This document shows, in pieces, positions 590-56,128 of a stretch of DNA of 64,000 nt (position 1 is the stretch's first letter; each line of letters begins with the position of its first letter). The DNA lies in assembly GCA_031550325.1 (NCBI GenBank), contig JAVBOR010000030.1, positions 11,309 through 75,308 of the forward strand. The letters run 5' to 3'. The position numbers were made by a program, and so were the translations under genes. Below the pieces are notes generated by a model. It was not told where the DNA came from. It saw only the letters and a list, made by a program, of their open reading frames with translations, and ran no database searches. Source of the DNA: Oscillospiraceae bacterium (GTDB taxonomy: Bacteria; Bacillota; Clostridia; Oscillospirales; UBA929).

Positions 590-669
590 GACAAATTCTC
601 CAATGGGCGGCAAAGTATTTGAAAAATGCTTGTGGTTATTATAGCATCATGGTATAAATATGTAAAGAC

Positions 670-2046
670 ATGGCGCGAGCGTTGGTGAGGGGGATTTTCC
701 GGGTGTTTGATTGGCGGCGCATGATGCGGATGTTCTGGCCGGTGTTGGCGGAGCAAGGGTTTGCGGTCATGATCGGCATTCTGGCCACGATCATGGTGCG
801 GTCTGTGTCGGGCGCAGCCATGGCAGGGGTCGGCATGCTCGGCACGCTGAATTTTCTCGTGATGAACGCGTTTACCGCTGTGGCCTCGGGCGTGACGGTC
901 GTGGTCAGTCAGGACATCGGCGGGCAGCGGTATGCCGAGGCCGGCCGCGCGTCCTCCCATTCGCTGACCACGGTGCTGTACGTCTCGCTGGCCATGGGCG
1001 CGCTGCTGACCGCGCTGAACAGGCCGCTGCTGATGCTTCTGTTCGGCTCAGCCGAGCCCGACGTTATTGAGGCAGCGCAAATTTACTTCCTCTGGTCTAG
1101 CATTTCTCTTCCTCTGCAGGCCATTTTTTCCACAATCGCCGGGATTATGCGCGCCACCGGCAATACCGCCATGCCGATGGCGGGCTCCATTTTGTCCAAC
1201 GTGGCCTATCTCGCCTCGGCCGGTCTGTGCATTTACGGGCTGAGCATGGGCGTTCAGGGCGCTGGCGTCGGCCTGATGATGTCCCGGCTCTTCCCCGCGG
1301 CGCTGCTGTCCTATTGGCTTTACCGGGGCAAGGCCGGGGTCTATCCGTCGCGGATGCCGCTGAAGCCCAGCATGGAGGTCATGCGGCCCGTGCTGAGAAT
1401 CGCCGTCCCCGCCGGCGTGGACAGCCTGATCTTCAACGGCGGCAAGCTGGTGGTGCAGGTGTTTATGTCGGGCATGGGCACGCCCGTGCTGGAGGCCAAC
1501 TCCATCGCCAACAACCTCGCGATGTTTTTAAATCTCCCGGGAGGCTCGCTGCAGATCATCGCGGTGACCATTGTCGGGCAGACCGTCGGCGCCGGAATGC
1601 GCGCGCAGGCGAAAAAGGAGACCTTCAGGCTGACCTGGGTGAGCTCGCTGTCCCAGCTTGCCATGAGCGCGCTGATGTTTGCCGCCCTGAATCCGTTGAT
1701 CAACCTGTTTGAGCCGTCCTCCGTGACCTTTGCCATTACGCGCGATGTCATGCTGATCATGCTGGTGTTCACGCCGCTGCTCTGGTCGCCGTCCTTTGTC
1801 ACGCCCCAGGCGCTGCGCGCCGGGGGGGACGCCACCTACACCATGTGGGTGTCCATCGGCTCGATGCTGCTGCTGCGCGTACTGGCGGCGTGGGTGCTCG
1901 GCGTCACGCTGAACATGGGCCTGCAGGGCATCTGGCTGGCCATGATGCTCGACTGGCTGGCGCGCGCAATCCTGTTTTTGCTGCGCACGCGGGGGATGGC
2001 CGACCGCAATGTTACCGGTGTGTTACAAACCGCTCAAAGATCTTGA
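670..2046 (+). CDS. MATE family efflux transporter
   Basis: 458-aa ORF, hydrophobic throughout (about 12 TM segments by eye), N-terminal WPVLAEQ-type MatE signature; true start may be an internal Met. Confidence 0.8.
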   Translation: MARALVRGIFRVFDWRRMMRMFWPVLAEQGFAVMIGILATIMVRSVSGAAMAGVGMLGTLNFLVMNAFTAVASGVTVVVSQDIGGQRYAEAGRASSHSLTTVLYVSLAMGALLTALNRPLLMLLFGSAEPDVIEAAQIYFLWSSISLPLQAIFSTIAGIMRATGNTAMPMAGSILSNVAYLASAGLCIYGLSMGVQGAGVGLMMSRLFPAALLSYWLYRGKAGVYPSRMPLKPSMEVMRPVLRIAVPAGVDSLIFNGGKLVVQVFMSGMGTPVLEANSIANNLAMFLNLPGGSLQIIAVTIVGQTVGAGMRAQAKKETFRLTWVSSLSQLAMSALMFAALNPLINLFEPSSVTFAITRDVMLIMLVFTPLLWSPSFVTPQALRAGGDATYTMWVSIGSMLLLRVLAAWVLGVTLNMGLQGIWLAMMLDWLARAILFLLRTRGMADRNVTGVLQTAQRS

Positions 2047-2122: not shown

Positions 2123-4798
2123 ATGCGTAACATGAAGAGATTTTTGTCTCTCGCACTCGCGCTCGTTATGGTCTTCTCGCTGGTCATTTCCGCATCGGCG
2201 AAGTCGATTGACGAGTTTGCCGACATCAACCCCGATGTCGACGCCAACGACGCCATGAACGACTATCTCGACGACGGCGACTATTTCCGTGACAGCCTGC
2301 AGATGGCCGTCGACCTCAGCATCCTCAAGGGCGACAACAACAACAACCTCAACCCGCAGGGTTCGGTCACCCGCGCTGAGTTCGTCACCATGCTGTACAA
2401 GTTCATGCATGGCGGCGCCGAGATCGCCGGCGTGTGGACCAACACCGCGTTCGCCGACATCGTGGGCCACTGGGGCGAAAAGTACATCGCCTGGGCCTAT
2501 GGCCAGGGTCTGATCAGCGGAACCAAGGCGCCCACCAACGCCACCTCTAAAGACGGCGTGTTCAGCCCGAACGGCACCATCAGCTACACCCAGGCGCTGC
2601 GCATGACTCTGTCGGCGCTGGGCATCAACGGCACCTACGAAGGCATCGACGCCTACAACTGGGCCAACAAGACCCTTGTCATCGCCACCGAAGGCGACAT
2701 CAACATCGTGCGTGATTTCAACGCCGCCAACAACGCCACCCTGACCCGCGTTGAGTGCGCCGTCATCCTCAACTTCGCGCTTGAGGCCGCCATGCAGGAG
2801 TACACCATGCAGTACAACGGCTCCGGCATGACCTATACCCGCAAGTCCGCCGAGCGCTCCAACGATCTCCTGCTCGCCGGCGTGAAGTACTATGACTATA
2901 CCCGTGTAAGCGGCACCGTTGCCGCCAACGACATAGCTGCCGTCAGCGGCGCCGTCGCCGCCTCGGGCAAGATCCGCATGACCAGTGTCGTCGCCGGCAC
3001 GTTTACCGGATCCCAGACCTATTCGATCGATCTGCCCGTCGAGGCCATTGGCCGTGACGTGTACTTCTACGCGAAGATCAACCAGACCACCGGCGCCGCC
3101 TCGAAAATTTACGGCTCGGTCAACTACACCGATAAAATGGACACCTACTCTGTGGGCGGCCTGACAGTTAGTGGCACAACCCTCGTAAACGGCGACGGCG
3201 ATACTGTTGCCAACAACGCCACGACGGGCACTTACGTCAACTACGCGATTGGCACGGATGCCACGACCGTGCGTAACACTTTTGCCGCCGCCAAAGCCGA
3301 CAACAATGTCCGCCTGATCTTCAAAAATGGCGCCACCGTCGCCACATACGCGTTCTTTGAAGACCTGACCTTCACCCAGATCAGCAAGGTTTCGGGCGGA
3401 AAGGTCACCGCCAAGGCCGTCATGACGACCGCCACTGAGACCAAGTACATCGAAACCAAAGACACCCTGGCCGCCAACGATTACGTCACCATTGCCCCGG
3501 TGGGCAGCGTCTACCTGATCAACAAGGCCACCACACTGAAGGCTCAGGTCAGCCGCACCCGCGACGCCGGCGCCACCTTTGTCATCAACGGCACCAACTA
3601 CTCTAACTACGCGATTACCGGCCTCACCGCGTTTGACCCGGCCGGAAACCTTGCCAAGGACTTCACGTTCTACGTCTTCGGCACGAAAATCGCCAAGGCC
3701 GTGAGCGCTTCGTCCGAGGTTGCCGAAGCTACCCAGTACTGCTACGTTGAGAAGTTCGTTGTGGACTCCAGCGTCATGGGCGACACGTCTGACGTTGTCA
3801 CCGCCCGCGTCTGGTCCCTCAAGGATCCCAAGGGCAAGGGCTATGTCGTCAGCGAAGACAGCACGGGTTATGCCGCCATGGCTAACAAAACCACCACTAC
3901 GGGATACTTCTCCTACACGATTGACGGCGACGGCCTGATCGTTCTTGACACTGCCGCTTCCACTACGAGCAGTGCAGCCACGCAGACGGTGCCCGCCTAT
4001 AACGGCACGTCCTCTATGATTAAACTTCCCATCGGCTCAACAAACACCAAAGAGTTCTACATCGCCGCCAACACCGCGTTCTTCCTGACTGACTCTTCTG
4101 ACGCGGTCGTCGGTGTGCGCAACAAGCCCGTCAAGTACGCCGTGTCCTCCGCGCTGGCTGTTGACAAGGTTAAGACCCTCGCTTCCACCGCAGCGGCTGA
4201 TCAGGTCAGCGGGCTTGACGTCCTGTATTACGCTGTGATGCCGAGCTTTGACGCGGCCTCCAACTTCCAGTATGTCTTCGCGACCGACCACGGCAGCTAT
4301 AACAGTGACAAGACCGTTACCTTCTCGGCCTTTGACGGTACTGTGGTCAAGGATTATGTGTCCGTCGCCGATGTGAAGATCAACGGAACCAAGGCCACCG
4401 CGACCACTAACCTGAAGTTCAAAAACCAGATCATTAAGCTTGACAACGCCACAGGCGAAATCGTTGACATTATCTGGGGCGCCACCAACGCATACACCAG
4501 CAAGACCACCACGACCTACATGAGCTCCGAGTCGACCGGCTACTTCAAGGGCAGAGTCCTCGGCGTCAGCGGCGGCATCATTGGTCTGGGCAACGACGGA
4601 ACCGCCACCGACACAATCTTCCGCAGCGAGTTCTCCAAGGTCAAACTCTATGTCATCCAGGGCACTGATTGCGCAGAGATCACCGATCTGGCTGACTTCA
4701 CGATGGACACCGACAACAACACCTACACCGCGTACTTCAACTGGAACAACTCAGACGCGACTGTCACCGACATCTGGGTTCTCGTTGCAGCCAAATAA
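2123..4798 (+). CDS. S-layer-type surface protein with N-terminal SLH domains
   Basis: AAGGAGG RBS at 2105-2111; signal peptide MRNMKRFLSLALALVMVFSLVISASA; SLH-like segments (FADI...VTRAEFVTMLYKF; FADIVGHWGEKYIAWAYGQGLISG); long Thr/Ala/Asn/Val-rich body typical of S-layer proteins. Confidence 0.75.
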   Translation: MRNMKRFLSLALALVMVFSLVISASAKSIDEFADINPDVDANDAMNDYLDDGDYFRDSLQMAVDLSILKGDNNNNLNPQGSVTRAEFVTMLYKFMHGGAEIAGVWTNTAFADIVGHWGEKYIAWAYGQGLISGTKAPTNATSKDGVFSPNGTISYTQALRMTLSALGINGTYEGIDAYNWANKTLVIATEGDINIVRDFNAANNATLTRVECAVILNFALEAAMQEYTMQYNGSGMTYTRKSAERSNDLLLAGVKYYDYTRVSGTVAANDIAAVSGAVAASGKIRMTSVVAGTFTGSQTYSIDLPVEAIGRDVYFYAKINQTTGAASKIYGSVNYTDKMDTYSVGGLTVSGTTLVNGDGDTVANNATTGTYVNYAIGTDATTVRNTFAAAKADNNVRLIFKNGATVATYAFFEDLTFTQISKVSGGKVTAKAVMTTATETKYIETKDTLAANDYVTIAPVGSVYLINKATTLKAQVSRTRDAGATFVINGTNYSNYAITGLTAFDPAGNLAKDFTFYVFGTKIAKAVSASSEVAEATQYCYVEKFVVDSSVMGDTSDVVTARVWSLKDPKGKGYVVSEDSTGYAAMANKTTTTGYFSYTIDGDGLIVLDTAASTTSSAATQTVPAYNGTSSMIKLPIGSTNTKEFYIAANTAFFLTDSSDAVVGVRNKPVKYAVSSALAVDKVKTLASTAAADQVSGLDVLYYAVMPSFDAASNFQYVFATDHGSYNSDKTVTFSAFDGTVVKDYVSVADVKINGTKATATTNLKFKNQIIKLDNATGEIVDIIWGATNAYTSKTTTTYMSSESTGYFKGRVLGVSGGIIGLGNDGTATDTIFRSEFSKVKLYVIQGTDCAEITDLADFTMDTDNNTYTAYFNWNNSDATVTDIWVLVAAK

Positions 4799-4859: not shown

Positions 4860-4864
4860 TCAGC

Positions 4865-4990
4865 CTGTAGACAAAGGCCGCCTCTTCGTTCCTTTGCGCA
4901 AAACCACGTCGAGCCTGACGCCGAAGGCGGCGGGTCCATGCTCGGGCGGGCGGCTCTTCGCTTGGGCGGCTCTTCTTGCGTTTTGCGGGG
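4865..4990. repeat. Intergenic repeat locus R1 (truncated copy of the 209-bp composite: left GTAG end plus class III E hairpin)
   Basis: 4865-4937 CTGTAGACAAAGGCCGCCTCTTCGTTCCTTTGCGCAAAACCACGTCGAGCCTGACGCCGAAGGCGGCGGGTCC matches the first ~73 nt of 35508-35716 almost exactly; possible 3' arm GTTTTGCG near 4980. Confidence 0.85.
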
Positions 4991-6739: not shown

Positions 6740-6751
6740 AGCCCTTACGGC

Positions 6752-6972
6752 TGTCAAAGAACCAATGGTTCTTTGACAAAGCGGGGACAGGCTCGCGTCT
6801 TTGTGAAGACGCGTTCCTGCTCCCGTTTGTAGACAAATCGAAGGTTTGTCTACAGACTAAAGGCATTCCCGGAATGAATCCGGGAATGCCTTTTGGTCTC
6901 ATCTTTTGCGGTTTTTATCCCAGAAAGCACCTTGCGGCTGCGCCGTCAGGCTCGGCGTAAAAACCGCAAAAG
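6752..6972. repeat. Intergenic repeat locus R2 (modules A-B-C-D-E, all intact)
   Basis: Hairpins: A 6752-6778 TGTCAAAGAACC-AATG-GGTTCTTTGACA; B 6794-6813 CGCGTCTT-TGTG-AAGACGCG; C 6828-6854 TGTAGACAAA-TCGAAGG-TTTGTCTACA; D 6859-6893; E 6903-6972 with perfect 14-bp outer stem CTTTTGCGGTTTTT/AAAAACCGCAAAAG. Confidence 0.9.
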
Positions 6973-7012
6973 GGTGCGGATGCGTGGGGCTCGTTGACGC
7001 GCGGGCAATGTG

Positions 7013-13597: not shown

Positions 13598-13770
13598 TTC
13601 ACCGCCCCATCATACGTATAAAGACGCCATTGGCTTAGTATAGCACATTTTCAGTATTCATTTCAAGGGAGTTATCCCCTAAAAAGGGACAACTTTGGAT
13701 AATAATCGTCAAAATCTCCGAAAGAAAGCGTCCAAAGCCGCGCCTACGTATGGCCGCAAGTCAATCTTCG

Positions 13771-13836
13771 CGCGTCTTCGCAAAGCCGCGAGCCTGACCT
13801 CAGCTTTGTCAAAAAACCGAGGGCTCTTTGACAAAG
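13771..13836. repeat. Intergenic repeat locus R3a (degenerate B plus A module)
   Basis: CGCGTCTTCGCAAAGCCGCG (B-like) and 13804-13836 CTTTGTCAAAAAACCGAGGGCTCTTTGACAAAG (A-like, degenerate near the loop). Confidence 0.7.
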
Positions 13837-13844
13837 ACTCAGAC

Positions 13845-13995
13845 TGTTGACAAAAGTTGCAGTCGCGATTCCAAAGCTTTTCCGACCAGCAAATCCGGAA
13901 CATTTCGCCGCATTAGGGCGCTTTAGCGCCTCCAATCTTCCGGATTTGACAACTCGCCACTGTGCGGCTTCGGGTCGGAAAAGTCTTTGTCATCA
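13845..13995. repeat. Second repeat family F, copy 1 (~150 bp)
   Basis: Aligns by eye to the reverse complement of 29443-29600 (e.g. GGATTTGACAACTCGCCACTGTGCGGCTTCGGGTCGGAA versus CCATTTGACAACTCACCGCTGTGCGGCTTCGGATCGGAA). Confidence 0.8.
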
Positions 13996-26058: not shown

Positions 26059-26666
26059 CGTTCGGACTCCTCCAACGCGCTTTGCATGGCCTTGAGCGTG
26101 CGTTCCAGCAGGGTGTCCAGCTCGATGCCCAGCATGTCGGCGCCCGCCTGGATGACGCTGCGGGAGCAGCCGGCCGCAAAGCTCAGATTTTTATACTTCT
26201 TTCGAAGCGACGCAAGTTCCATGTCACAGACGCTGCGCGAGGGCCGCATGAGCGCCGCCGCGCCGATCAGCCCGGTCAGCTCATCCACGGCATACAGCAC
26301 CTTTTCCATGACGGATTCAGGCCGGATATCCACGAAAAGGCCATAACCGTGGCTGGCGCAGGCGCGCACGATGAGCTCGTCAACGCCGTGCTCACGCAAA
26401 ATGGCTTGCGTCCTGACGCAATGCTCGTCGGGGAACCGCTCGAAGTCGAGGTCGTGCAAAAGTCCGACGACCGCCCAGAGTGCCTCGTCCTCTCCGAGAT
26501 CACGCGCCCACCAGCGCATCACGCTCTCCACGGTTTGGGCGTGCCGCAGCAGAAAATCCTCCTGCGTATACTCTTTAAGCAGCGCCATGGCCTGCGCGCG
26601 GGAGGGAATCATGGGCCAACCTTCTTTCATAATGGCGTTCAGACTGTCAAAAAAGCTCCCTCGCAC
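26055..26666 (-). CDS. HD-domain metal-dependent phosphohydrolase
   Basis: LLHDLDFE HD motif, HA..VE..M; alternative starts at 26630 or 26612 (MIPSRAQAMALL) are equally plausible. Confidence 0.75.
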   Translation of the reverse strand: MRGSFFDSLNAIMKEGWPMIPSRAQAMALLKEYTQEDFLLRHAQTVESVMRWWARDLGEDEALWAVVGLLHDLDFERFPDEHCVRTQAILREHGVDELIVRACASHGYGLFVDIRPESVMEKVLYAVDELTGLIGAAALMRPSRSVCDMELASLRKKYKNLSFAAGCSRSVIQAGADMLGIELDTLLERTLKAMQSALEESER

Positions 26667-26946
26667 TCCCGCAAACCGCTTCAGCGGGTTGATCCGCTCC
26701 CCGGCTTTGTCAAAGATCCGAAGGGGTTAAGGCAAGCCGGCGCATTCAAGCGCCTTTCGCAGTTTTAGTATAGCACCCCGCATGGGCTAAGGCAAGACGG
26801 TTGTTTTCCATGTAAAGCCGGCGCGTGTACACGCTCTATTATGAATTGACGTGGCCTCTTTGGCTTGGTATAATAATGCGCGTACGCGGCCCGCGGTGAG
26901 AAACGTTGCGCTTCGGGCGAAATGAAGAACCGGGAGGGGGGAGACC

Positions 26947-28364: not shown

Positions 28365-28368
28365 ACAG

Positions 28369-28552
28369 TTTGTCAAAGAACCTCCGGTTCTTTGACAAAG
28401 CGGGGGTCTGGCTCGCGTCTTTGCGAAGATGCGCAAAGAAATGCTTTCCCGAAGTGAATCCGTGAAAGCGTTGTGGTTCAATCTTTTTCGGCTTTCAGTC
28501 CAGCAAGGACCTGCCGGCTGCGCCGTCAGGCTCGACATGAAAACCGAAAAAG
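28369..28552. repeat. Intergenic repeat locus R4 (modules A-B-D-E)
   Basis: A 28369-28399 TTTGTCAAAGAACC-TCCG-GTTCTTTGACAAA; degenerate B 28414-28433; D 28439-28472; E 28483-28552 (stem CTTTTTCGGCTTTC/GAAAACCGAAAAAG). Confidence 0.9.
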
Positions 28553-28586
28553 GACGAGGACGCGAGGGGTTCTTTAACAACCTAGG

Positions 28587-31116: not shown

Positions 31117-31159
31117 GTGGGCTGGGGACAGAGGCTGATAAAAGCCCCTCGCATGCTCG

Positions 31160-31378
31160 TCCTTTTCCTGGATTCACGTCGAGCCTGACGCCGAAGGCGG
31201 CGGGTTCTTGCCGGACCGGATCCAGGAAAAATATGAACCACAACGGTTTCGGGAGTTCATTTCTCGAAACCGTTTCTCGTCAAACCGCCTCAGCGGTTTG
31301 ATCCTGCTTTCGTTTTGTCTAAGAACCAAAGGTTCTTTGACAGGCTTAGGCTGCTCAAGAATCTAGGTTCTTTGACAG
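31160..31378. repeat. Intergenic repeat locus R5 (E-D inverted, G, A, plus a half-A inside the CDS end)
   Basis: E 31160-31231 (stem TTTCCTGGATTC/GGATCCAGGAAA); D 31242-31274 (AACGGTTTCG...CGAAACCGTT); G 31281-31300 CAAACCGC-CTCA-GCGGTTTG; A 31313-31343; half-A GGTTCTTTGACA 31366-31377. Confidence 0.85.
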
Positions 31379-33368: not shown

Positions 33369-33473
33369 ACGGGGTTTCGGTGCTTTCACAACAGCTAGAT
33401 GATTCAGGGCTCTCTTTTTGAGAGATACCTGGACAAGAGGATTTGGGTGAAAGTCTATTTTGAAGGTGATACG

Positions 33474-35453
33474 ATGAAAACTACACGAAAACGTCGCTTA
33501 CATGCAATGGTCGTTGCCCTCGTTCTGATGGCTATTCTCGCAAACATTCTGCTTGTCACGTTTGCGTATAATGGCCCCGGCGGACAAACGCTCAACTTGA
33601 GCGGGAAGGGCGCGGACCCCTCTACCATGGATTCCTGGAAGGATCAGAGCGGACCTGTCTTGGAAGACGGCGAGGTTTGGGCGGATAAAACCGTGCAGTA
33701 CGCCCGGCCGAATGACGGCGAGTTTACGGTCACGCTTTCGGCGCTGGCGCGTGAAAAAGCTCTTTATGAAGAAGCCGCCGAAAATTTGATTGTCCTGATG
33801 ATCGACTGGTCGGGCAGTGTGGTGGACTTTAATACGGCCTGCCATACCGCAGAAGGCGTCCTTGACACGATTTACGCAGATCGTCCGGAAAGCAGAATCC
33901 TGATGGTTTCTTACGGAACCAATAACGTCACCTCTCCTGTATTCAGTGACTCCGTTTCAGCAAAAGACTACCTGAATACATTTATCAAGGCCAACAAGCC
34001 CACCGTAGAGAAGGATAGCGGTACCAACATACAAGGCGCCATTTTCGCGGCTGAGCAAGCGCTTAAACTGCACATGGCAGCCTCCGGCGAACGGCTGGTT
34101 CCCTCCTATGTGCTGATCACGGACGGGGTGCCTACCTACGCGTATCGCTATGTGCTCAACGAAAGCGTCACGCCTGACGTCGGCTTGCGCATGGGCGACG
34201 GCCACACGCCGCACACCGCGTTTTACGGCCAGCCGCTGTTCAGTTTCCAGACCATCCTTCAGGCGAATGCCTCCAAGAAAGCGCTGCCGGGGAGCCTGTT
34301 CTTTACCTTCCGCTCTCCTGGCGACAACAGCAGCAGCGCATCGGCAACCTTGGGCGCTGCTCTGCCCAATGAAGACCTTCTGTACATACACGACGGCAAA
34401 TACGAGGTTCAAAAGCTTATCCCGGGCACCAACCCCGAGGAGTGGGAAGAGTATACAAACGTTTCCAATCCCTTTGTGAATATGTTCCACGCGTTTACCG
34501 ATGAGCAGACCTTTACCGAGCCCTATTTTGTGGAAGTCGATCGATATGTGGGCGGCCAGTACCGCACCGGATACTGGGTGTATCCCACCTTTATCGAAGA
34601 GAGCCTGCCCCAGAACTACACGCCGTACGCCGACATTGCGGCCGGTCTGAACGTGAATCCGGCCGACACCGGACTGACCAGTATGCTTGCCCAGCAGCGC
34701 GTTGTCCGCAACGGCGTCATCAAGCCGCTGCGCGCTGAGACAGATATGGTCATCACCGACGTGCTGGGCGAAACCTTTACGCTGGACGCTCAGGCGCTCA
34801 CCGCCGCCGCCGCCGCGCAGGCGCCGGGAACGAGCGTGGCTTACGACGAGACGACCAGAACCGTCACGTGGACCATCCCCGCTGCGCTTGTGCCTCTGCT
34901 GCCGTGCACGGAGGATTATCAGGAGCCCAGTAACGTAGCGCCGCTCCGGCTGAGTTATGATATTTTGTTCAGCCCCGCTGCCGGCCAGCTGGACAACTGG
35001 TCCGAGGGAATGCGCTACTACACAAACGCGCGCACGATGCTTGCGGGCGTCGAGTCCAATCCGAACCTTGCCACCTTTGCTCCCAACCTTCTTGCCGGAC
35101 GCTACGTAAACGAGACCGAGACCATCCTGCTTCCCAATCGCGGTTGGGTTGAGCTGACGGTCAGGACTCCGCCCACAAGCAGCGGCAGGACCAGCACAAC
35201 GCCGAGCGACCCCACGAGCTTTTCTCCGCCGCCCAGCGATGAGTTTACCACGCCCAGCATTCCGATCGATTTTCCGGTTTCTCCCTCTCCCAGCGATGAT
35301 GGGTTTGAGGATACCAGCATTCCGATTGACCCGCCCATTCCGCCGACAGGCGGCGTGAACTCAGCTTTATTCATGCTTTTCGGGGGTATAGCTCTGGTGG
35401 GCTGTGGTCTCCTGCTCGGAAGAAAAGTCGGCGGAAACGTGTCCCAGGATTAA
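33474..35453 (+). CDS. vWA-domain surface protein with LPXTG-like (IPPTG) C-terminal sorting signal
   Basis: Signal/TM MKTTRKRRLHAMVVALVLMAILANILLV; MIDAS DWSGS...TN...TDG; Pro/Ser/Thr-rich stalk; C-terminus IPPTGG, then hydrophobic stretch, then GRKVGG. Confidence 0.75.
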   Translation: MKTTRKRRLHAMVVALVLMAILANILLVTFAYNGPGGQTLNLSGKGADPSTMDSWKDQSGPVLEDGEVWADKTVQYARPNDGEFTVTLSALAREKALYEEAAENLIVLMIDWSGSVVDFNTACHTAEGVLDTIYADRPESRILMVSYGTNNVTSPVFSDSVSAKDYLNTFIKANKPTVEKDSGTNIQGAIFAAEQALKLHMAASGERLVPSYVLITDGVPTYAYRYVLNESVTPDVGLRMGDGHTPHTAFYGQPLFSFQTILQANASKKALPGSLFFTFRSPGDNSSSASATLGAALPNEDLLYIHDGKYEVQKLIPGTNPEEWEEYTNVSNPFVNMFHAFTDEQTFTEPYFVEVDRYVGGQYRTGYWVYPTFIEESLPQNYTPYADIAAGLNVNPADTGLTSMLAQQRVVRNGVIKPLRAETDMVITDVLGETFTLDAQALTAAAAAQAPGTSVAYDETTRTVTWTIPAALVPLLPCTEDYQEPSNVAPLRLSYDILFSPAAGQLDNWSEGMRYYTNARTMLAGVESNPNLATFAPNLLAGRYVNETETILLPNRGWVELTVRTPPTSSGRTSTTPSDPTSFSPPPSDEFTTPSIPIDFPVSPSPSDDGFEDTSIPIDPPIPPTGGVNSALFMLFGGIALVGCGLLLGRKVGGNVSQD

Positions 35454-35471: not shown

Positions 35472-35503
35472 AGGATCCCCCTTGAGTATTCAAGGGGGAT
35501 CCT
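35472..35503 (+). terminator. Perfect 13-bp hairpin after the vWA gene (possible terminator, no U-tract)
   Basis: AGGATCCCCCTTG-AGTATT-CAAGGGGGATCCT, 19 nt after the stop. Confidence 0.45.
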
Positions 35504-35507
35504 CAGT

Positions 35508-36048
35508 CTGTAGACAAAGGCCGCCTCTTCGTTCCTTTGCGCAAAACCACGTCGAGCCTGACGCCGAAGGCAGCGGGTCCCTGCTGGACTGGTTGAGCGC
35601 AAAGCATGGAAACAAGTGACTTCCACGAATTCACTCCGGGAAAGTCACCCAATGCGCGTCTTCACAAAGACGCGTTCCTGCTCCCGTTTGTAGACAAATC
35701 GAAGGTTTGTCTACAGTCTCAACAAACCGCTGAGGCGGTTTGCAGGGAAACGGTTTTGAGAAATGAATTCCCGAAACCGTTGAGGTTCCTATTTTTCCTG
35801 GATTCAGTCCAGCAAGAACCTGTCACTTGCAGCGCCAGACTCGACGCGAATCCAGGAAAGGGACGAAGGCGCAAAGCTCCGGTTTGACTACAAAACGATG
35901 AAAAGTGATCGGCTCTGTGGAGCCTCCCAAAGAAAGGCTTTCCCGGAGTGAATCCGAGAAAGCCTTTCTATTTCATCTTTTGCGGTTCACATCCCAGAAA
36001 GGACCTTGCGGCTCCGGCCGCAAGGCTCGGCGTAAAAACCGCAAAAGG
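35508..36048. repeat. Intergenic repeat locus R6, largest array (209-bp composite plus G plus two further D-E units plus H)
   Basis: E 35533-35605(-), D 35612-35650(-), B 35655-35674, C 35688-35716, G 35722-35743, D 35746-35782, E 35792-35860, H 35886-35926, D 35932-35968, E 35976-36048. Confidence 0.9.
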
Positions 36049-36135
36049 ACGAGCGCGCGGGACTGTTGCTTTGCACCAAGCTCCAGTAGCTCCTGGAACA
36101 AGGCAGGTGAACACCCCACGCGGAGACTCCAGCTA

Positions 36136-42803: not shown

Positions 42804-43145
42804 GAGTTTTCCCCGACTCACTCCGGAAAAACCCTCTCTGCAAACCGCCTCAGCGGTTTGATCCAATCCTTCGCTTTGACAAGGAACCGGAGCCCTTTGT
42901 CAAAGGGTGTAAACAGAAGCGGTATCCGCGCTCCTTTGCGCAAAACCACGTCGAGCCTGACGGCGTAGCCGGCAGGTCCTTGCTGGACTGGTTTAGCGCA
43001 AAGGAGCGAAACAAGAGACTTTCACGGATTCATTCCGGGAAAGTCGTTCTCCGCGCGTCTTCGCAAAGACGCGATCTAAGCCCCCGTTTGTAGGCAAACC
43101 GAAGGTTTGCCTACAGCCTGCAAAGAACCGAAGGTTCTTTGTCAG
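42804..43145. repeat. Intergenic repeat locus R7 (D-G-A-E-D-B-C-A)
   Basis: G 42841-42860; A 42874-42905; E 42931-43006 (CTCCTTTGCGCAAAACC/GGTTTAGCGCAAAGGAG); D 43015-43046; B 43053-43073; C 43087-43116 (GTAGGCAAACC-GAA-GGTTTGCCTAC, compensated variant); A 43118-43145. Confidence 0.9.
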
Positions 43146-43152
43146 TTTATTG

Positions 43153-44991
43153 TTATTTTGTTGTCAGTGCGTTATAGAGCTGAACAAACGTGACGTCGGC
43201 CATCTCGCGCGAGAAGGTCATTTTGGGCTCAAAGCCCTTGGCGGTGCCGTTCATGATGCCGTTGGCCGAGACGTAGTCAACAGCGCTCGTTGCCCATGAG
43301 GAGATCGTGGCCTTGTCGGAAAAGCTGTTGGCCGGGGCAGCCGACATGAGCCCGAGCGAGCGCACGGTGTTGGCCAGCATGACGGCCGCCTGCTCGCGGG
43401 TGATGTCCCCGTTCGGGTCGAAGATGGTCGTGGACTTGCCCGCTACGACGCCCAGCTTGTTGGCCGCCACGATGACCTTGTCGCTGGTGTCGGTAAACGT
43501 GTTGGTCGAAAGGTCGATGCCGCGTTCGGCGATCAGCTGGTCGAGCGTTTTGCCGGTCACCGACTCCATGAGCATGACCGCCTGAAGGCAGAACTCGGCG
43601 CGCGTGGCGTTTTTCTTGTAGTCGCCGATCAGCGAAGCGGGGATCAGATTATGGGCGTAAGCCGCCTCGATGTGCACGGTCGCCCACGAGCTGGCCTCGC
43701 CGAGCTTGAGGTCGACAGGAAGCTCGCCGGGCACGCGGACGCCCGACAGAATTTGAACGGGACTCATGCGCCCGGTGGCCGAACCGTCGCCAATCGAGCC
43801 CTCTGTGTTGCTTTGGCCCCAGGACCACAGCGTGCCGTCCTTTTTCAGCGCCAGCGTACTGTAGTTGCTGAGTACGGCGCTTTCAACCCCGTCAAGAACC
43901 TTGACAGGAGCCGAACGGTTTTCTTCGGTGCTGTCGCCGAGCTGTCCATAGAGGTTGTCTCCCCACATCCACAGCGAGCCGTCGGCCTTCAGCGCGCCGA
44001 AATGTACGGCCCCGCTAAAGAGTGAGGCAGCGCCCGTCATCTTCAGCGCCGGCTGGCTTCTGGAGAATACTATTCTGGTCTCGGTTGATTCAACCGAAAG
44101 CGTAGCCTGATAAACGTCTCCGTTTTGCTTAAGCATGACGACATCCTGAATACCGTTGACAATGCTGACCACCCCGTCGGCGTACTTTTCAGGTGTTTCG
44201 ACAAAGTCTACATTGGCGGTTGTGGACGTGACATTTAATCCCTTCACCCCCCAGAACCACACGGTACCGTTGGTCTTCAGGGCAAAGGTCCCTATCAGAT
44301 CTCCGGAAACCGCGGCAACGTCGCTGAGCAGCTGAGACGGGGCCGTCGAGCCGCTTGCTCCCAGATATTCGCTCATTCCATAGTATTTGTCGCCCCAAGT
44401 CCAGAGGGTGCCGTCCAGCTTGACCGCCATGCCCTGGTAGATGTGGATGTCCATGTTGCGAACGCCGTCCATGAGTTTGACCGGGCTCAGCCGGTCCCTC
44501 GTCGTGCCGTCGCCGATCAAACCGTTTGCGTTGCTTCCCCAGCTCCAGAGACTGCCGTCCTTTTTCAGCATCAGCTGCGTCTCGCCGTTTGTAGTGACGC
44601 TTTTGACGTCTTTGGCGATCTCAACGGGGCTCGGCCGATCGACCCTGCTGCCGTCGCCGAGGTAACCTACATTGTAACCCCAGCCCCAGAGCGTGCCGTC
44701 CTTTGTGATTGCGTAGTTGGTTTCGCCTATCGCCATGACGGAGATGACGTCAGTCATGACTTTGACCGGGCTCAGCCGGTCGGTCGTCGTGCCGTCGCCA
44801 ATCTGGCCGTAGTTGTTGAATCCCCAGCACCACAGTGAGCCGTCGGCCTTAATGGCCATGCCGCCGTCCAATCCGGTGTCAAATGTGCGCGTGAGGCGTT
44901 CCTGGGGCGCGACCGCGTCCGCGGCGAGGGCTGGCAACGCTGATAACAGCATGAGAAGGGCAAGAACCAGACAAAGTAATCGTTTTTTCAT
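43153..44991 (-). CDS. Secreted RCC1-repeat beta-propeller protein with three C-terminal SLH-like domains (paralog 1)
   Basis: Signal peptide [23 protein letters not shown] (GGAGGA RBS); repeated GSLW.WG.N..GQ(L/I)GDG units; C-terminal ...[14 protein letters not shown], ...[16 protein letters not shown]. Confidence 0.8.
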
Positions 44992-45132
44992 AATAATTCC
45001 TCCAAAACTAGCAAAGTAGTCTTCACGGCGCGGCCCGCCAACCGTTGCGTCCGGGCGGCGCGTGAAGCTCAAATGTTATTCCCAGATGACGCCCATCGGA
45101 GGTACGCTAAAAAGCCGCCAGGCTCTCCAGCT

Positions 45133-45406
45133 TGCAGACAAAGAGGGCTTTGTCTACAAAACGATGACAAATGATCGGCTCTGTGGAGCCTCATAAAGGA
45201 ATGTTTTCCCGGAGTGAATCCGTGAAAGCATTGCGGTTTAATATTTTGCGGTTTTTGTCCCAGCAAGGACCTTGCGGCTCCGGCCGCAAGGCTCGGCGTA
45301 AAAACCGCAAAAGGACGAGAGCGCGTAAGGTTTATCTTCAGTCTGACGTCTGCCGCCGAAGGCGGCAGACCCTCGTTTTGACAAAGAACCTATGGTTCTT
45401 TGTCAG
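45133..45406. repeat. Intergenic repeat locus R8 (C-H-D-E-hairpin-A)
   Basis: C 45133-45158; H 45155-45192; D 45198-45234; E 45242-45313 (ATTTTGCGGTTTTT/AAAAACCGCAAAAG); hairpin GTCTGCCGCC-GAA-GGCGGCAGAC 45348-45370; A 45376-45406. Confidence 0.9.
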
Positions 45407-45413
45407 TTTATTA

Positions 45414-47222
45414 TCAGTTTGCTGTCAGTGCGTTATAGAGCTGAACAAACGTGACGTCGGCCATCTCGCGCGAGAAGGTCAGTTTGGGCTCAAAGCCCTT
45501 GGCGGTGCCGTTCATGATGCCGTTGGCCGAGACGTAGTCAACAGCGCTCGTGGCCCAGGAGGAGATCGTAGCCCGGTCGGAAAAGCTGTTGGCCGGGGCA
45601 GCCGACATGAGCCCGAGCGAGCGCACGGTGTTGGCCAGCATGACGGCCGCCTGCTCGCGGGTGATGTCCCCGTTCGGGTCGAAGATGGTCGTGGACTTGC
45701 CTGCCGCGACGCCCAGCTTGCTGGCCGCCACGATGACCTTGTCGCTGGTGTCGGTAAACGTGTTGGTCGAAAGATCGATGCCGCGCTCGGCGATCAGCTC
45801 GTCGAGTGTTTTTCCGGTCACCGACTCCATGAGCATGACCGCCTGAAGGCAGAACTCGGCGCGCGTGGCGTTTCTGGTGTAGCTGCCGATCAGCGAAGCG
45901 GGGAGCAGATTGTTGGCGTAAGCCGCCTCGATGTGCACGGTCGCCCACGAGCTGGCCTCGCCGAGCTTGAGGTCGACAGGCGGAAGCGGCATGCCGGTCA
46001 GCACTTTCAGCGGATAGGTGATGTGCGTGCCCAGGCCGGCGTCGTCGACATTCTGTCCGTTCAGGCCGCAGACCCAAAGACTGCCGTCTGTTTTCTCAAT
46101 CATGGTGCTGGTTCCGCTGACAAACGGCAGCGAAAGCACGTCCAGAGACATGGTCTTGACCGGGGCCGCGCGGTCAACGACAGTGCCGTCGCCGAGCTGT
46201 CCGAAATGATTGGTCCCGCGGGACCAGAGCGAGCCGTCCTTGAGAAGGAAGGAGGTCTGCGTCTGCGCGCTGACCATGGACACGACGTTTTCAATCAGCT
46301 TGACGGCGGGCTGGCGCGTCATCGACGTAACGCCGGATTTGGTCTCCGGCGGCGTCTCGATCGTCCAGGCCACGCCGGCGGTATTCAGGTAGTTCAGCGC
46401 GTACAGCTCGGCAGTGACGCCCGTAACGCCGGTCAGCTGCCTGACGGGCGCGGCGTCCAGGGTCACGCTGTCCTTGGCCAGCGTCTTCAGGCCCCAAACA
46501 TAAAGCGTCGAATCCTCGAGGACGGCGCCGGCCAGCGTCTGCCCCAGCGCGAACGCCTTGACGTTTTCCAGCACCTTCACAGGAGAGGTTCCGTCGGTCT
46601 GCGCGCCGAGAAGCCCGTATCTGGACTGGCCCCATGACCAGAGGCTTCCGTCCGTTTGGAGGGCAAGGGTTTGATCGCCGTTGGTGGCGACGTCCAGCAC
46701 ATCGTCCATCACTTTAAAGGGCTCAAGCGGGTTGGTTTTTCCCGCCGCAAGATAGCCGTGGTCGATCCCCCAGCACCAGAGGCTGCCGTCCGTTTGAACG
46801 GCGTAGGTAAACGTCGCGCCGGGCACCACGAGAGAGACGTCCGGGAAAATATAGGTCGGCGTGAGCCGGTGAGCGGCGTCGCCGGTGCCCAGGATTCCGT
46901 TGGTGTTTCTTCCCCAGGCGTAGAGGTCGCCGTTGTCCAGAACGGCAAATGACGAGCGGTTATAGGCGAACACGGCGCGCACGCCGTCCCGCAGGTTGAC
47001 CGGCGAGGGGCGGGCGTTGATGCCGCCGTCGCCAAGCTGTCCATAGTGGTTGGCGCCCCAGGAGTACAACGTTCCGGTGGCGGTGACTGCCAGAAAGTGG
47101 TTCTGCCCGGCGGCGTACGCGTGGCCAAGCCGGTCTGCCGGCGTCTGCGCCGCGAGGCTGTGCCCTGCAAGGGACAGGACAAGTGCGAGGGCCAGCGCGA
47201 TGCTCAGAATTTTGCGTTTCAT
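45414..47222 (-). CDS. Secreted RCC1-repeat beta-propeller protein with three C-terminal SLH-like domains (paralog 2)
   Basis: Signal peptide MKRKILSIALALALVLSLAGHSLA; RCC1-type repeats; C-terminal ~190 aa nearly identical to paralog 1. Confidence 0.8.
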   Translation of the reverse strand: MKRKILSIALALALVLSLAGHSLAAQTPADRLGHAYAAGQNHFLAVTATGTLYSWGANHYGQLGDGGINARPSPVNLRDGVRAVFAYNRSSFAVLDNGDLYAWGRNTNGILGTGDAAHRLTPTYIFPDVSLVVPGATFTYAVQTDGSLWCWGIDHGYLAAGKTNPLEPFKVMDDVLDVATNGDQTLALQTDGSLWSWGQSRYGLLGAQTDGTSPVKVLENVKAFALGQTLAGAVLEDSTLYVWGLKTLAKDSVTLDAAPVRQLTGVTGVTAELYALNYLNTAGVAWTIETPPETKSGVTSMTRQPAVKLIENVVSMVSAQTQTSFLLKDGSLWSRGTNHFGQLGDGTVVDRAAPVKTMSLDVLSLPFVSGTSTMIEKTDGSLWVCGLNGQNVDDAGLGTHITYPLKVLTGMPLPPVDLKLGEASSWATVHIEAAYANNLLPASLIGSYTRNATRAEFCLQAVMLMESVTGKTLDELIAERGIDLSTNTFTDTSDKVIVAASKLGVAAGKSTTIFDPNGDITREQAAVMLANTVRSLGLMSAAPANSFSDRATISSWATSAVDYVSANGIMNGTAKGFEPKLTFSREMADVTFVQLYNALTAN

Positions 47223-55675: not shown

Positions 55676-56128
55676 CTGTCAAAGAACGTGTGCTTTCGCT
55701 TTGTGAAAGCACACGTTCTTTGACAAAGCGGGGGTTGGATCAAACCGCTGTGGCGGTTTGCAGAGTAGGGCGTTCCCGGAATGAATCCGGGAACGCCCTA
55801 AGACTGTAGACAAACCTTCGATTTGTCTACAAACGGGAGCAGGAACGCGTCTTTGTGAAGACGCGCATTGGGTGACTTTCCCGGAGTGAATCCGTGAAAG
55901 TCACTTGTTTCCATGCTTTGCGCTCAACCAGTCCAGCAGGGCCTAGCCGCCTTCGGCGTCAGGCTCGACGTGGTTTTGCGCAAAGGAACGAAGAGGCGGC
56001 CTTTGTCTACAGGCAGACAAACCGAAGGTTCGATGGGAAACGGTTTCGAAGAGTGAAATCCCGAAACCATTGTGGTTCATTTTTTTTGGATTCAATCCAG
56101 CAAGAACCTGTCGGCTGCGCAGCTGAGA
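55676..56128. repeat. Intergenic repeat locus R9 (A-G-D, 209-bp composite, then a D-E unit)
   Basis: Extended A 55676-55728 (20-bp perfect stem GTCAAAGAACGTGTGCTTTC/GAAAGCACACGTTCTTTGAC); G 55741-55760; D 55766-55800; C 55804-55832; B 55845-55865; D 55871-55904; E 55915-55987; D 56036-56073; truncated E 56082-56128. Confidence 0.9.

Follow-up and report, generated by a model that had tools for sequence, protein, structure and literature searches.

In the 64,000-nt stretch of DNA analysed here (the window: contig JAVBOR010000030.1, positions 11,309 to 75,308, of the Oscillospiraceae bacterium assembly GCA_031550325.1), a pair of conserved hairpins, designated D and E, recurs many times. The original prediction described these as ten copies of a ~115-nt unit whose stems change sequence but remain paired, and proposed either a structured RNA family or a hairpin recognised by a protein. 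Our analysis indicates that D-E is probably the core of a 214-220-bp non-coding, non-autonomous element, similar to MITEs (miniature transposable elements with inverted repeats), which inserts at stem-loops. The family is an undescribed one of hairpin-targeting miniature mobile elements of a familiar selfish-DNA kind, and not a new RNA gene. It is unusual in that a whole stem-loop is duplicated and in that its internal cores are more constant than its ends.

Architecture of the element and its probable insertion beside hairpins

Each of the ten predicted positions was confirmed to contain a D-E copy. A profile hidden Markov model built from the D-E copies recovered all ten in the window with E-values of 4e-21 to 4e-36, together with an eleventh, partial copy consisting of the 3' half of E (4889-4942, minus strand). 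The 22-nt D core with at most three mismatches gave eight matches, against 0.00 expected in shuffles, and the 14-nt 3' core of E gave seven, against 0.05. Two hairpins had been taken for standalone D copies. One of them (6859-6893) is in fact the D of the first listed copy, and the other, placed at 55766-55800, is a true solo D at 55768-55798; a further solo D-like hairpin lies at 42804-42834. The proposed ~115 nt proved too short for the whole unit, since full-length alignment showed the copies to be homologous over ~215 nt.

Folding of the intergenic regions revealed strings of hairpins around D-E, namely A (TGTCAAAGAACC..GGTTCTTTGACA), B (CGCGTCTT..AAGACGCG), C (TGTAGACAAA..TTTGTCTACA, containing GTAG...CTAC), F (CAAACCGC..GCGGTTTG) and G (GGCTC..GAGCC). 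The common plan is a terminal hairpin (A or C), a linker AARCGRGRG, a small hairpin (B, F or G), D, E, a linker AAAGGACGAG and a terminal half-site. Module combinations vary by subfamily, giving a mosaic family. The left terminal hairpin comprises the terminal inverted repeat and its inverted copy, so that the outer arm of this hairpin and the right half-site form the terminal inverted repeats of the element (CAGnCTGTAGACAAAC, TGTCAAAGAACC and TCAGACCGATGACAAAC; Table 1); the ends of all subfamilies can be aligned. No coding capacity was found within the element, as ORF (open reading frame) scans returned only ORFs entering from the flanks.

A genome-collection scan with a 19-nt D core gave at least 53 matches, most of them chance palindromes. 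Among the matches listed, ten contigs belonged to one metagenome-assembled genome (MAG), JAVBTT01 ('Oscillospiraceae bacterium EPI_MAG_00258', assembly GCA_031556035.1), and the element was thereby found outside the original strain, in a second species. The MAG copies align end to end with those of the window, follow the same plan, carry a fourth version of the E stem (CTTTTTCACTCTTGCG / CGCAAAAGTGAAAAAG) and are nearly identical among themselves; the window element at 45128-45346 has the same architecture. Window units measure 214-219 nt and those of the MAG 219-221 nt, depending on the placement of the first base. The element is the sole DNA similarity between the JAVBTT01 loci and the window. 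A search of JGI metagenomes with the 22-base D core yielded one match, an unrelated solo palindrome in a contig of 70% G+C, and blastn against phages and 72,556 plasmids, rhizobial megaplasmids included, yielded none. Both organisms, that of the window and that of the MAG, are represented in run SRR23967709, and their Logan short-read contigs stop inside the element (L054 6637-6841; L057 1-30; L063 1352-1421). The family thus breaks short-read contigs and affects the assembly and binning of Oscillospiraceae MAGs.

The junctions in the MAG point to hairpins as targets. At seven of nine copies, an 8-20-bp stem ends 0-2 nt from the left junction, as compared with 1.4% of random positions in the same loci, and several element ends in the window also adjoin hairpins. 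The target sequences differ from one another, and insertion therefore occurs next to hairpins without a sequence consensus. Furthermore, the complete MAG copies carry direct repeats of the abutted host hairpin on both flanks (Table 1). Copies are intergenic, apart from the one at locus L017, where the target, as read from the translation, appears to be a palindromic stretch within a recombinase-like coding sequence and not a terminator. Truncated copies also occur.

An apparently empty site was found for one of these copies. Two contigs, L060 from the MAG and L061 from the Logan assembly of SRR23967709, encode the pfk protein that lies beside the L038 copy, and they are 100% identical for 1.2 kb on one side and 2.7 kb on the other. 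L060 contains the 219-nt element and a second copy of a 33-nt hairpin, whereas L061 contains one hairpin copy and no element; the pfk-to-PRA-PH spacer is 298 nt in the former and 46 nt in the latter (filled allele, L060 3972-4271; empty allele, L061 1202-1249). At the L045 locus, an SRR23967709 contig runs into the element and then ends. A relative whose pfk is 88% identical shares the gene pair and lacks the element. The ptb relative is not syntenic and is thus uninformative. The presence or absence of individual copies could serve as a strain marker.

Two target sites of the MAG have unusual flanks. The left flank of L005 (reverse strand) and the right flank of L009 are inverted repeats of each other over ~60 nt, which places the element within a very long palindrome and not an ordinary terminator. 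In L062 3877-4200, corresponding to the L045 locus, just 14-15 nt of the target recur beyond the element, and a complete hairpin with a 20-bp stem stands beside the left end, so that the target sequence is present there in inverted orientation too. This locus comprises a tRNA 3' end and a terminator beside a phosphate butyryltransferase gene.

The genes neighbouring the copies are ordinary housekeeping genes, and a Pfam search of 30 flanking ORFs from the window and the MAG loci turned up neither a transposase nor an integrase or reverse transcriptase. Housekeeping genes also follow the three MAG copies that are truncated in E, so none of these copies represents one end of a larger autonomous element. 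The second species also contains other repeat families, with a TAAACAGRTATT..GCATAAGCGRAGG motif and a hairpin-rich segment (L009 ~250-290; L033 ~3631-3670; L021 5446-5600). At two loci they come after D-E copies truncated within E, suggesting that insertions also take place in E.

From the homology of the copies, their terminal repeats, hairpin adjacency, duplications and covariation and the presence/absence polymorphism, we infer an enzyme type, a cut geometry and a role for D and E as follows. A transposase acting in trans would move the element and integrate it at DNA able to form a stem-loop, usually a terminator and once a coding palindrome. Two strand transfers flanking the stem-loop would duplicate it entirely (14-33 bp in the young copies), leaving a terminator on either side of the element. 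Repeated insertion next to hairpins, including those of earlier copies, would then build the mosaic clusters of the window. The stems of D and E would stay paired because only copies with folding hairpins continue to transpose, and inserted copies would decay neutrally. The constant D loop and the middle of E are the most likely sequence-specific contacts of the transposase. Of the two suggestions in the original prediction, a hairpin recognised by a protein is thus the better fit, with the protein taken to be this putative transposase.

A more specific version of this scheme is possible, but we hold it only tentatively. An enzyme recognising extruded stem-loops by their shape would join the element to the 5' feet of a cruciform and thereby copy the whole target hairpin, with D and E, whose loops are constant and whose stems covary freely, as structure-specific recognition modules, and the transposase might be a new one. 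If true, this would represent a mode of transposition so far proposed only on paper, and the element would be a 'terminator-preserving' parasite with a working terminator on each side.

Stem pairing and alternative explanations

The original descriptions of the three stem classes, of the compensated C hairpin (43088-43116) and of the differing apical hairpins of E were confirmed. For quantification, a covariance model was built from 13 copies, and 14 full copies of the two organisms were aligned with it. Standard pairs occupied 93.3% of cells, as compared with 80.4% after partner shuffling (0 of 500 shuffles as high), both sides changed in 20 of 40 pairs, and the covariation score was 0.355 against 0.135; the alignment is fitted to the structure, and its sequences form only ~5-6 clades, so the independent compensatory events are far fewer than the cell counts imply. 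Pairing dropped to 29-49% when the partner was slid by 1-3 columns. Between subfamily consensuses, 114 double changes that keep a pair were counted against 56 single changes that break one. The claim that pairing is kept through sequence turnover is therefore borne out by both the pair counts and the subfamily comparison. The reported conservation of the loops holds in part: the D loop (TGAAT) and the middle of E (GTCCAGCAAGGACC / CAGGCTCGAC) are constant, but unpaired columns overall diverge between classes by ~25-40%, similar to paired ones.

The young MAG family behaves differently. Five of its six stem changes break a pair, the sixth closes a mismatch of the consensus, and none is a two-sided compensation. 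Copies decay once inserted, while lineages still spreading keep their hairpins. Post-insertion decay combined with compensation between subfamilies points to the ability to transpose, and not a host RNA function of each copy, as the target of selection. Selection on secondary structure, as originally proposed, thus stands in that pairing is maintained, but it probably acts on mobility and not on host RNA. More generally, the covarying hairpins of multicopy intergenic repeats can mimic a new RNA family, and here it is the decay pattern that indicates selection on mobility.

Several points weigh against a MITE-like, hairpin-targeting element. Target duplications of variable length are unusual for DDE transposases, and those observed here come from four young copies of one MAG. 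Around the window copies, no flanking direct repeats above control were detected, which fits the greater divergence and the nesting of these copies. The element at 28365-28583 is wedged between two different host hairpins. Terminal repeats that vary across subfamilies while the internal cores are constant are the reverse of the usual MITE pattern. Neither the 64-kb window nor ~100 kb of MAG loci yielded a transposase or a parent insertion sequence (IS) with matching ends. The empty site in L061 is conceivably a k-mer collapse artefact, as Logan assemblies use k = 31 and the duplication (33 nt) is at least that long; at equal coverage, such a branch is expected to break the contig and not to be skipped. 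Finally, IS1272/TnSha1, which also use hairpin targets, delete or replace the stem-loop without duplicating it (PMC4923244, PMC5678879).

An alternative is a REP/REPIN-like element for which an HUH tyrosine transposase (RAYT or IS200/IS605-like) recognises D, E and C and moves the element in single-stranded form, with the clusters as equivalents of BIMEs. The hairpin-based design and the pairing kept under sequence turnover recall REPIN spacers (PMC3337134), the mosaic clusters hold modules in both orientations, the C hairpin contains the GTAG...CTAC mentioned above, and both strands fold equally well. Nevertheless, we consider this explanation unlikely: the element has terminal inverted repeats and target duplications, while the IS200/IS605 family has neither the former nor larger duplications (PMC2817692), its unit is 215 nt with four or five hairpins and not a 20-40-nt palindrome, and no RAYT or Y1 transposase gene was present in the window or the MAG loci examined.

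The structured-RNA or 3'-untranslated-region (3'-UTR) reading of the original prediction found no support. It would hold that the copies are host-maintained structured RNAs or 3'-UTR cis-elements, such as mRNA stabilisers or small RNAs, with compensation arising from RNA selection at each locus. The strong covariation, the constancy of some internal loops and the position of most copies directly downstream of genes agree with it, and effects on transcripts are known for REP, BOX and other repeats (PMC3049150, PMC10969869). However, copies occur in both orientations (four sense and two antisense in co-directional spacers, and five in convergent spacers), and those at 4860-4943 and 45128-45346 run antisense to the genes on both sides. 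The two strands show no asymmetry, with 25 and 28 G-U pairs and similar folding energies. The elements contain no promoter-like or terminator-like site; the test for intrinsic terminators (G+C-rich stem plus T-run) called only flanking host hairpins, and neither D nor E. Rfam gave no match in the window at the gathering score, and with E-values up to 5 it gave only chance-level matches, none near that score. Recently diverged copies lose pairs without compensation, which is unexpected if each copy were a functional RNA. One copy lies within a coding sequence, and one is present or absent between otherwise identical flanks. Taken together, a host RNA function is improbable, although a secondary effect on neighbouring transcripts is possible, as discussed for REP and BOX.

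Compensated stems could also arise without selection, either by intrastrand template switching or gene conversion restoring palindromes, or through a small core nested in the loops of differing host hairpins, whereby every class would merely bear another host's stem. Such an origin would accord with elements that insert at hairpins and cluster or nest, with the shuffling of modules among subfamilies (A or C at the ends; B, F or G as the small hairpin) and with the perfection of many stems. It is quite improbable, because the stem classes have a common base (CTTT...AAAG) and are set apart by point changes. Relative to class I, the E stem of copy 28439 shows two compensated double changes (G-C to T-A and T-A to C-G) plus one uncompensated C·A. 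In addition, the E core never occurs within an unrelated stem or without D upstream, and young copies carry uncorrected mismatches, so that no active homogenisation is evident. A SINE-like retroelement spreading through RNA and target-primed reverse transcription, of which we know no comparable bacterial system, would account for target duplications varying from 14 to 33 nt, truncated copies and conserved helices, but is highly improbable given the terminal inverted repeats, the lack of strand bias, truncation on both sides (the left part is missing from 4860-4943, and the right part from 56014-56128 and from three MAG copies) and the absence of a reverse transcriptase from the flanking ORFs searched.

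Window copies, neighbouring sequences and host

The element family makes up ~4% of the window, where copies frequently adjoin one another, use a common end or are cut short (Table 1).

Table 1 Coordinates of element copies in the window, of terminal inverted repeats and of flanking direct repeats at MAG loci
Feature	Position	Strand	Details
Truncated copy: E 3' half, linker, right terminal repeat	4860..4943	-	Adjoins terminator hairpin of gene 2123-4798
Full element, type 1, degenerate right end	6747..7001	+	A 6752-6778, B 6794-6813, extra C 6827-6855, D 6859-6895, E 6905-6972
Full 219-nt element, type 1 (A-B-D-E-right end)	28365..28583	+	Terminal inverted repeats 28367-28382, 28568-28583
Full 219-nt element, type 2 (A-F-D-E-right end), class II stems	31129..31347	-	
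Full 218-nt element, type 3 (C-B-D-E-right end), class III stems	35503..35720	-	Right end adjoins terminator hairpin of gene 33399-35453
Type 2 element without left terminal hairpin (F-D-E-right end)	35723..35893	+	Right half-site common to next copy
Type 4 element (half C, G hairpin, D, E, right end), class I stems	35879..36077	+	
Partial unit A-F-D'' without E (second)	42804..42904	-	
Full 216-nt element, type 3 variant	42905..43120	-	Compensated C hairpin GTAGGCAAACC/GGTTTGCCTAC
Full 219-nt element, type 4 (C-G-D-E-right end)	45128..45346	+	Right end adjoins hairpin 45348-45370
Partial unit A-F-D' without E	55677..55798	+	D' = solo D 55768-55798
Full 214-nt element, type 3	55800..56013	+	Terminal inverted repeats 55804-55814, 56002-56012 (11/11)
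Truncated type 2 copy: degenerate C, D, E 5' half	56014..56128	+	
Terminal inverted repeats, window	28367-28382 / 28568-28583		16 nt, 88% complementarity
Terminal inverted repeats, window	55804-55814 / 56002-56012		11 nt, 100% complementarity
Terminal inverted repeats, MAG locus L038	445-465 / 655-675		21 nt, 86% complementarity
Flanking direct repeat, MAG	L038		32/32 nt
Flanking direct repeat, MAG	L017		23/24 nt
Flanking direct repeat, MAG	L005 plus L009		26/27 nt
Flanking direct repeat, MAG	L045		14/14 nt

Other repeats were observed around these copies. A 300-nt stretch that is 96% identical between 43121-43420 and 45382-45681 corresponds to the 3' ends of two paralogous SLH/RCC1-repeat genes (43153-45072 and 45414-47222); both paralogues are followed by an A-type hairpin, past which the element types differ. 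Direct repeats of 39-90 nt with ~144-nt spacing at 43817-47078 represent RCC1 units in the proteins of the two large genes and not intergenic repeats. Solo modules (A hairpins, B-like and F-like) without D-E were found at 13758-13855, 26645-26720, 45379-45405 and 43121-43144, one set of them in a divergent promoter spacer; they may represent minimal elements, or decayed ones, in which terminal repeats abut each other.

The window has a G+C content of ~60%, a Clostridia-like enolase and neighbouring genes for SLH-domain proteins and AddA/AddB. The named AddA homologues come from Oscillospiraceae or Ruminococcaceae; the nearest non-identical relative is 53% identical, and no element was found in its sequence. 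Judging from these genes, the window organism is an uncultured, gut-type, deep-branching Oscillospiraceae-like Firmicute. Exact-protein look-ups of three window ORF versions returned no record. A rhizobial RIME or Sm-repeat, which G+C content and appearance had suggested, was rejected in view of the Firmicute-type enolase, SLH proteins and AddAB, the Oscillospiraceae relatives of AddA and the absence of a plasmid match. Streptomyces contigs (L023, L028, L034 and L044) carry a D-like palindrome, CCCGGAATGAATCCG.GAA, in a conserved leader upstream of an ORF starting MSV.DE; it is unrelated to the element and may be a separate conserved 5' structure.

Comparison with known systems

In behaviour, the closest known elements are IS1272/TnSha1 of the IS1182 family, which target hairpins, mostly terminators and occasionally sites within genes, without a primary-sequence consensus, and for which Wan et al. 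proposed a pathway whereby the IS ends join the 5' feet of a cruciform and the stem-loop is duplicated (PMC4923244, PMC5678879). The element resembles them in its hairpin-forming target, mostly a terminator just 3' of a gene and at times a coding palindrome, in its terminal inverted repeats of ~16 bp and in its Firmicute host. Some IS1272 copies have an extra left end (IS1272L), paralleling the three terminal-repeat copies of the element, and the MAG copies match the whole-stem-loop duplication pathway of Wan et al. It differs from them in duplicating the stem-loop, in having no transposase gene and in its internal hairpins D and E, which have no described counterpart; the likeness drawn here is one of behaviour. 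As no transposase was found in the window or the MAG loci and the IS1272 trait of non-duplication is not shared, membership among IS1182-dependent elements cannot be claimed. ISfinder gives direct repeats of 0-60 bp for the IS1182 family, so other members may duplicate their target. ISL3-like ends (GGTTCTTTGACA) were considered and dropped, as the repeat orientation does not fit. Hairpin-adjacent insertions and whole-hairpin duplications constitute natural data on structure-dependent target choice, so far described mainly for IS1272 in staphylococci, and suggest a way for a parasite to insert at terminators and yet not abolish them.

In architecture, the closest system is BOX, with RUP and SPRITE, of Streptococcus pneumoniae (PMC3049150). 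These are likewise small, non-coding, modular, mosaic and tightly folding Firmicute repeats that are enriched downstream of genes and in convergent spacers, cluster and insert into each other, and have terminal inverted repeats, target duplications and a presumed mobilisation in trans (PMC3049150). Compared by description, BOX, which is not known to be related in sequence, is unlike the element in being AT-rich and in its variable boxB copy number, and a target duplication of hairpin length is not reported for it. Integron attC sites, in which R''/R' core sites flank promoterless cassettes beside an integrase, are hairpins of conserved structure too and were considered on that account; the genes around the copies are ordinary housekeeping ones.

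The REP/BIME/REPIN group also forms mosaics of intergenic palindromes in which hairpin pairing is held while the sequence changes (PMC3337134), but its units are 20-40 nt (~90 nt for REPINs), without terminal inverted repeats or target duplications, and are linked to Y1 transposases (PMC3337134, PMC2817692). RIME (Rhizobium-specific intergenic mosaic elements) is a comparable mosaic of intergenic palindromes, though here the host is a Firmicute. REPs, for their part, are found mainly in Proteobacteria.

With MITEs such as Correia, ERIC, Nezha and MITEAba12, the element shares a size below 300 bp, terminal inverted repeats, target duplications and the lack of an ORF, and these families are equally multicopy, intergenic and stably folding (PMC10969869, PMC3184786). 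Classical MITEs have short target duplications of fixed length, whereas those observed here are long and variable, and their terminal repeats are usually the best conserved part and match a known IS, whereas here the internal cores are steadier than the ends. By its defining features, namely small size, absence of coding sequence, terminal inverted repeats, target duplication and many copies, the element is a MITE.

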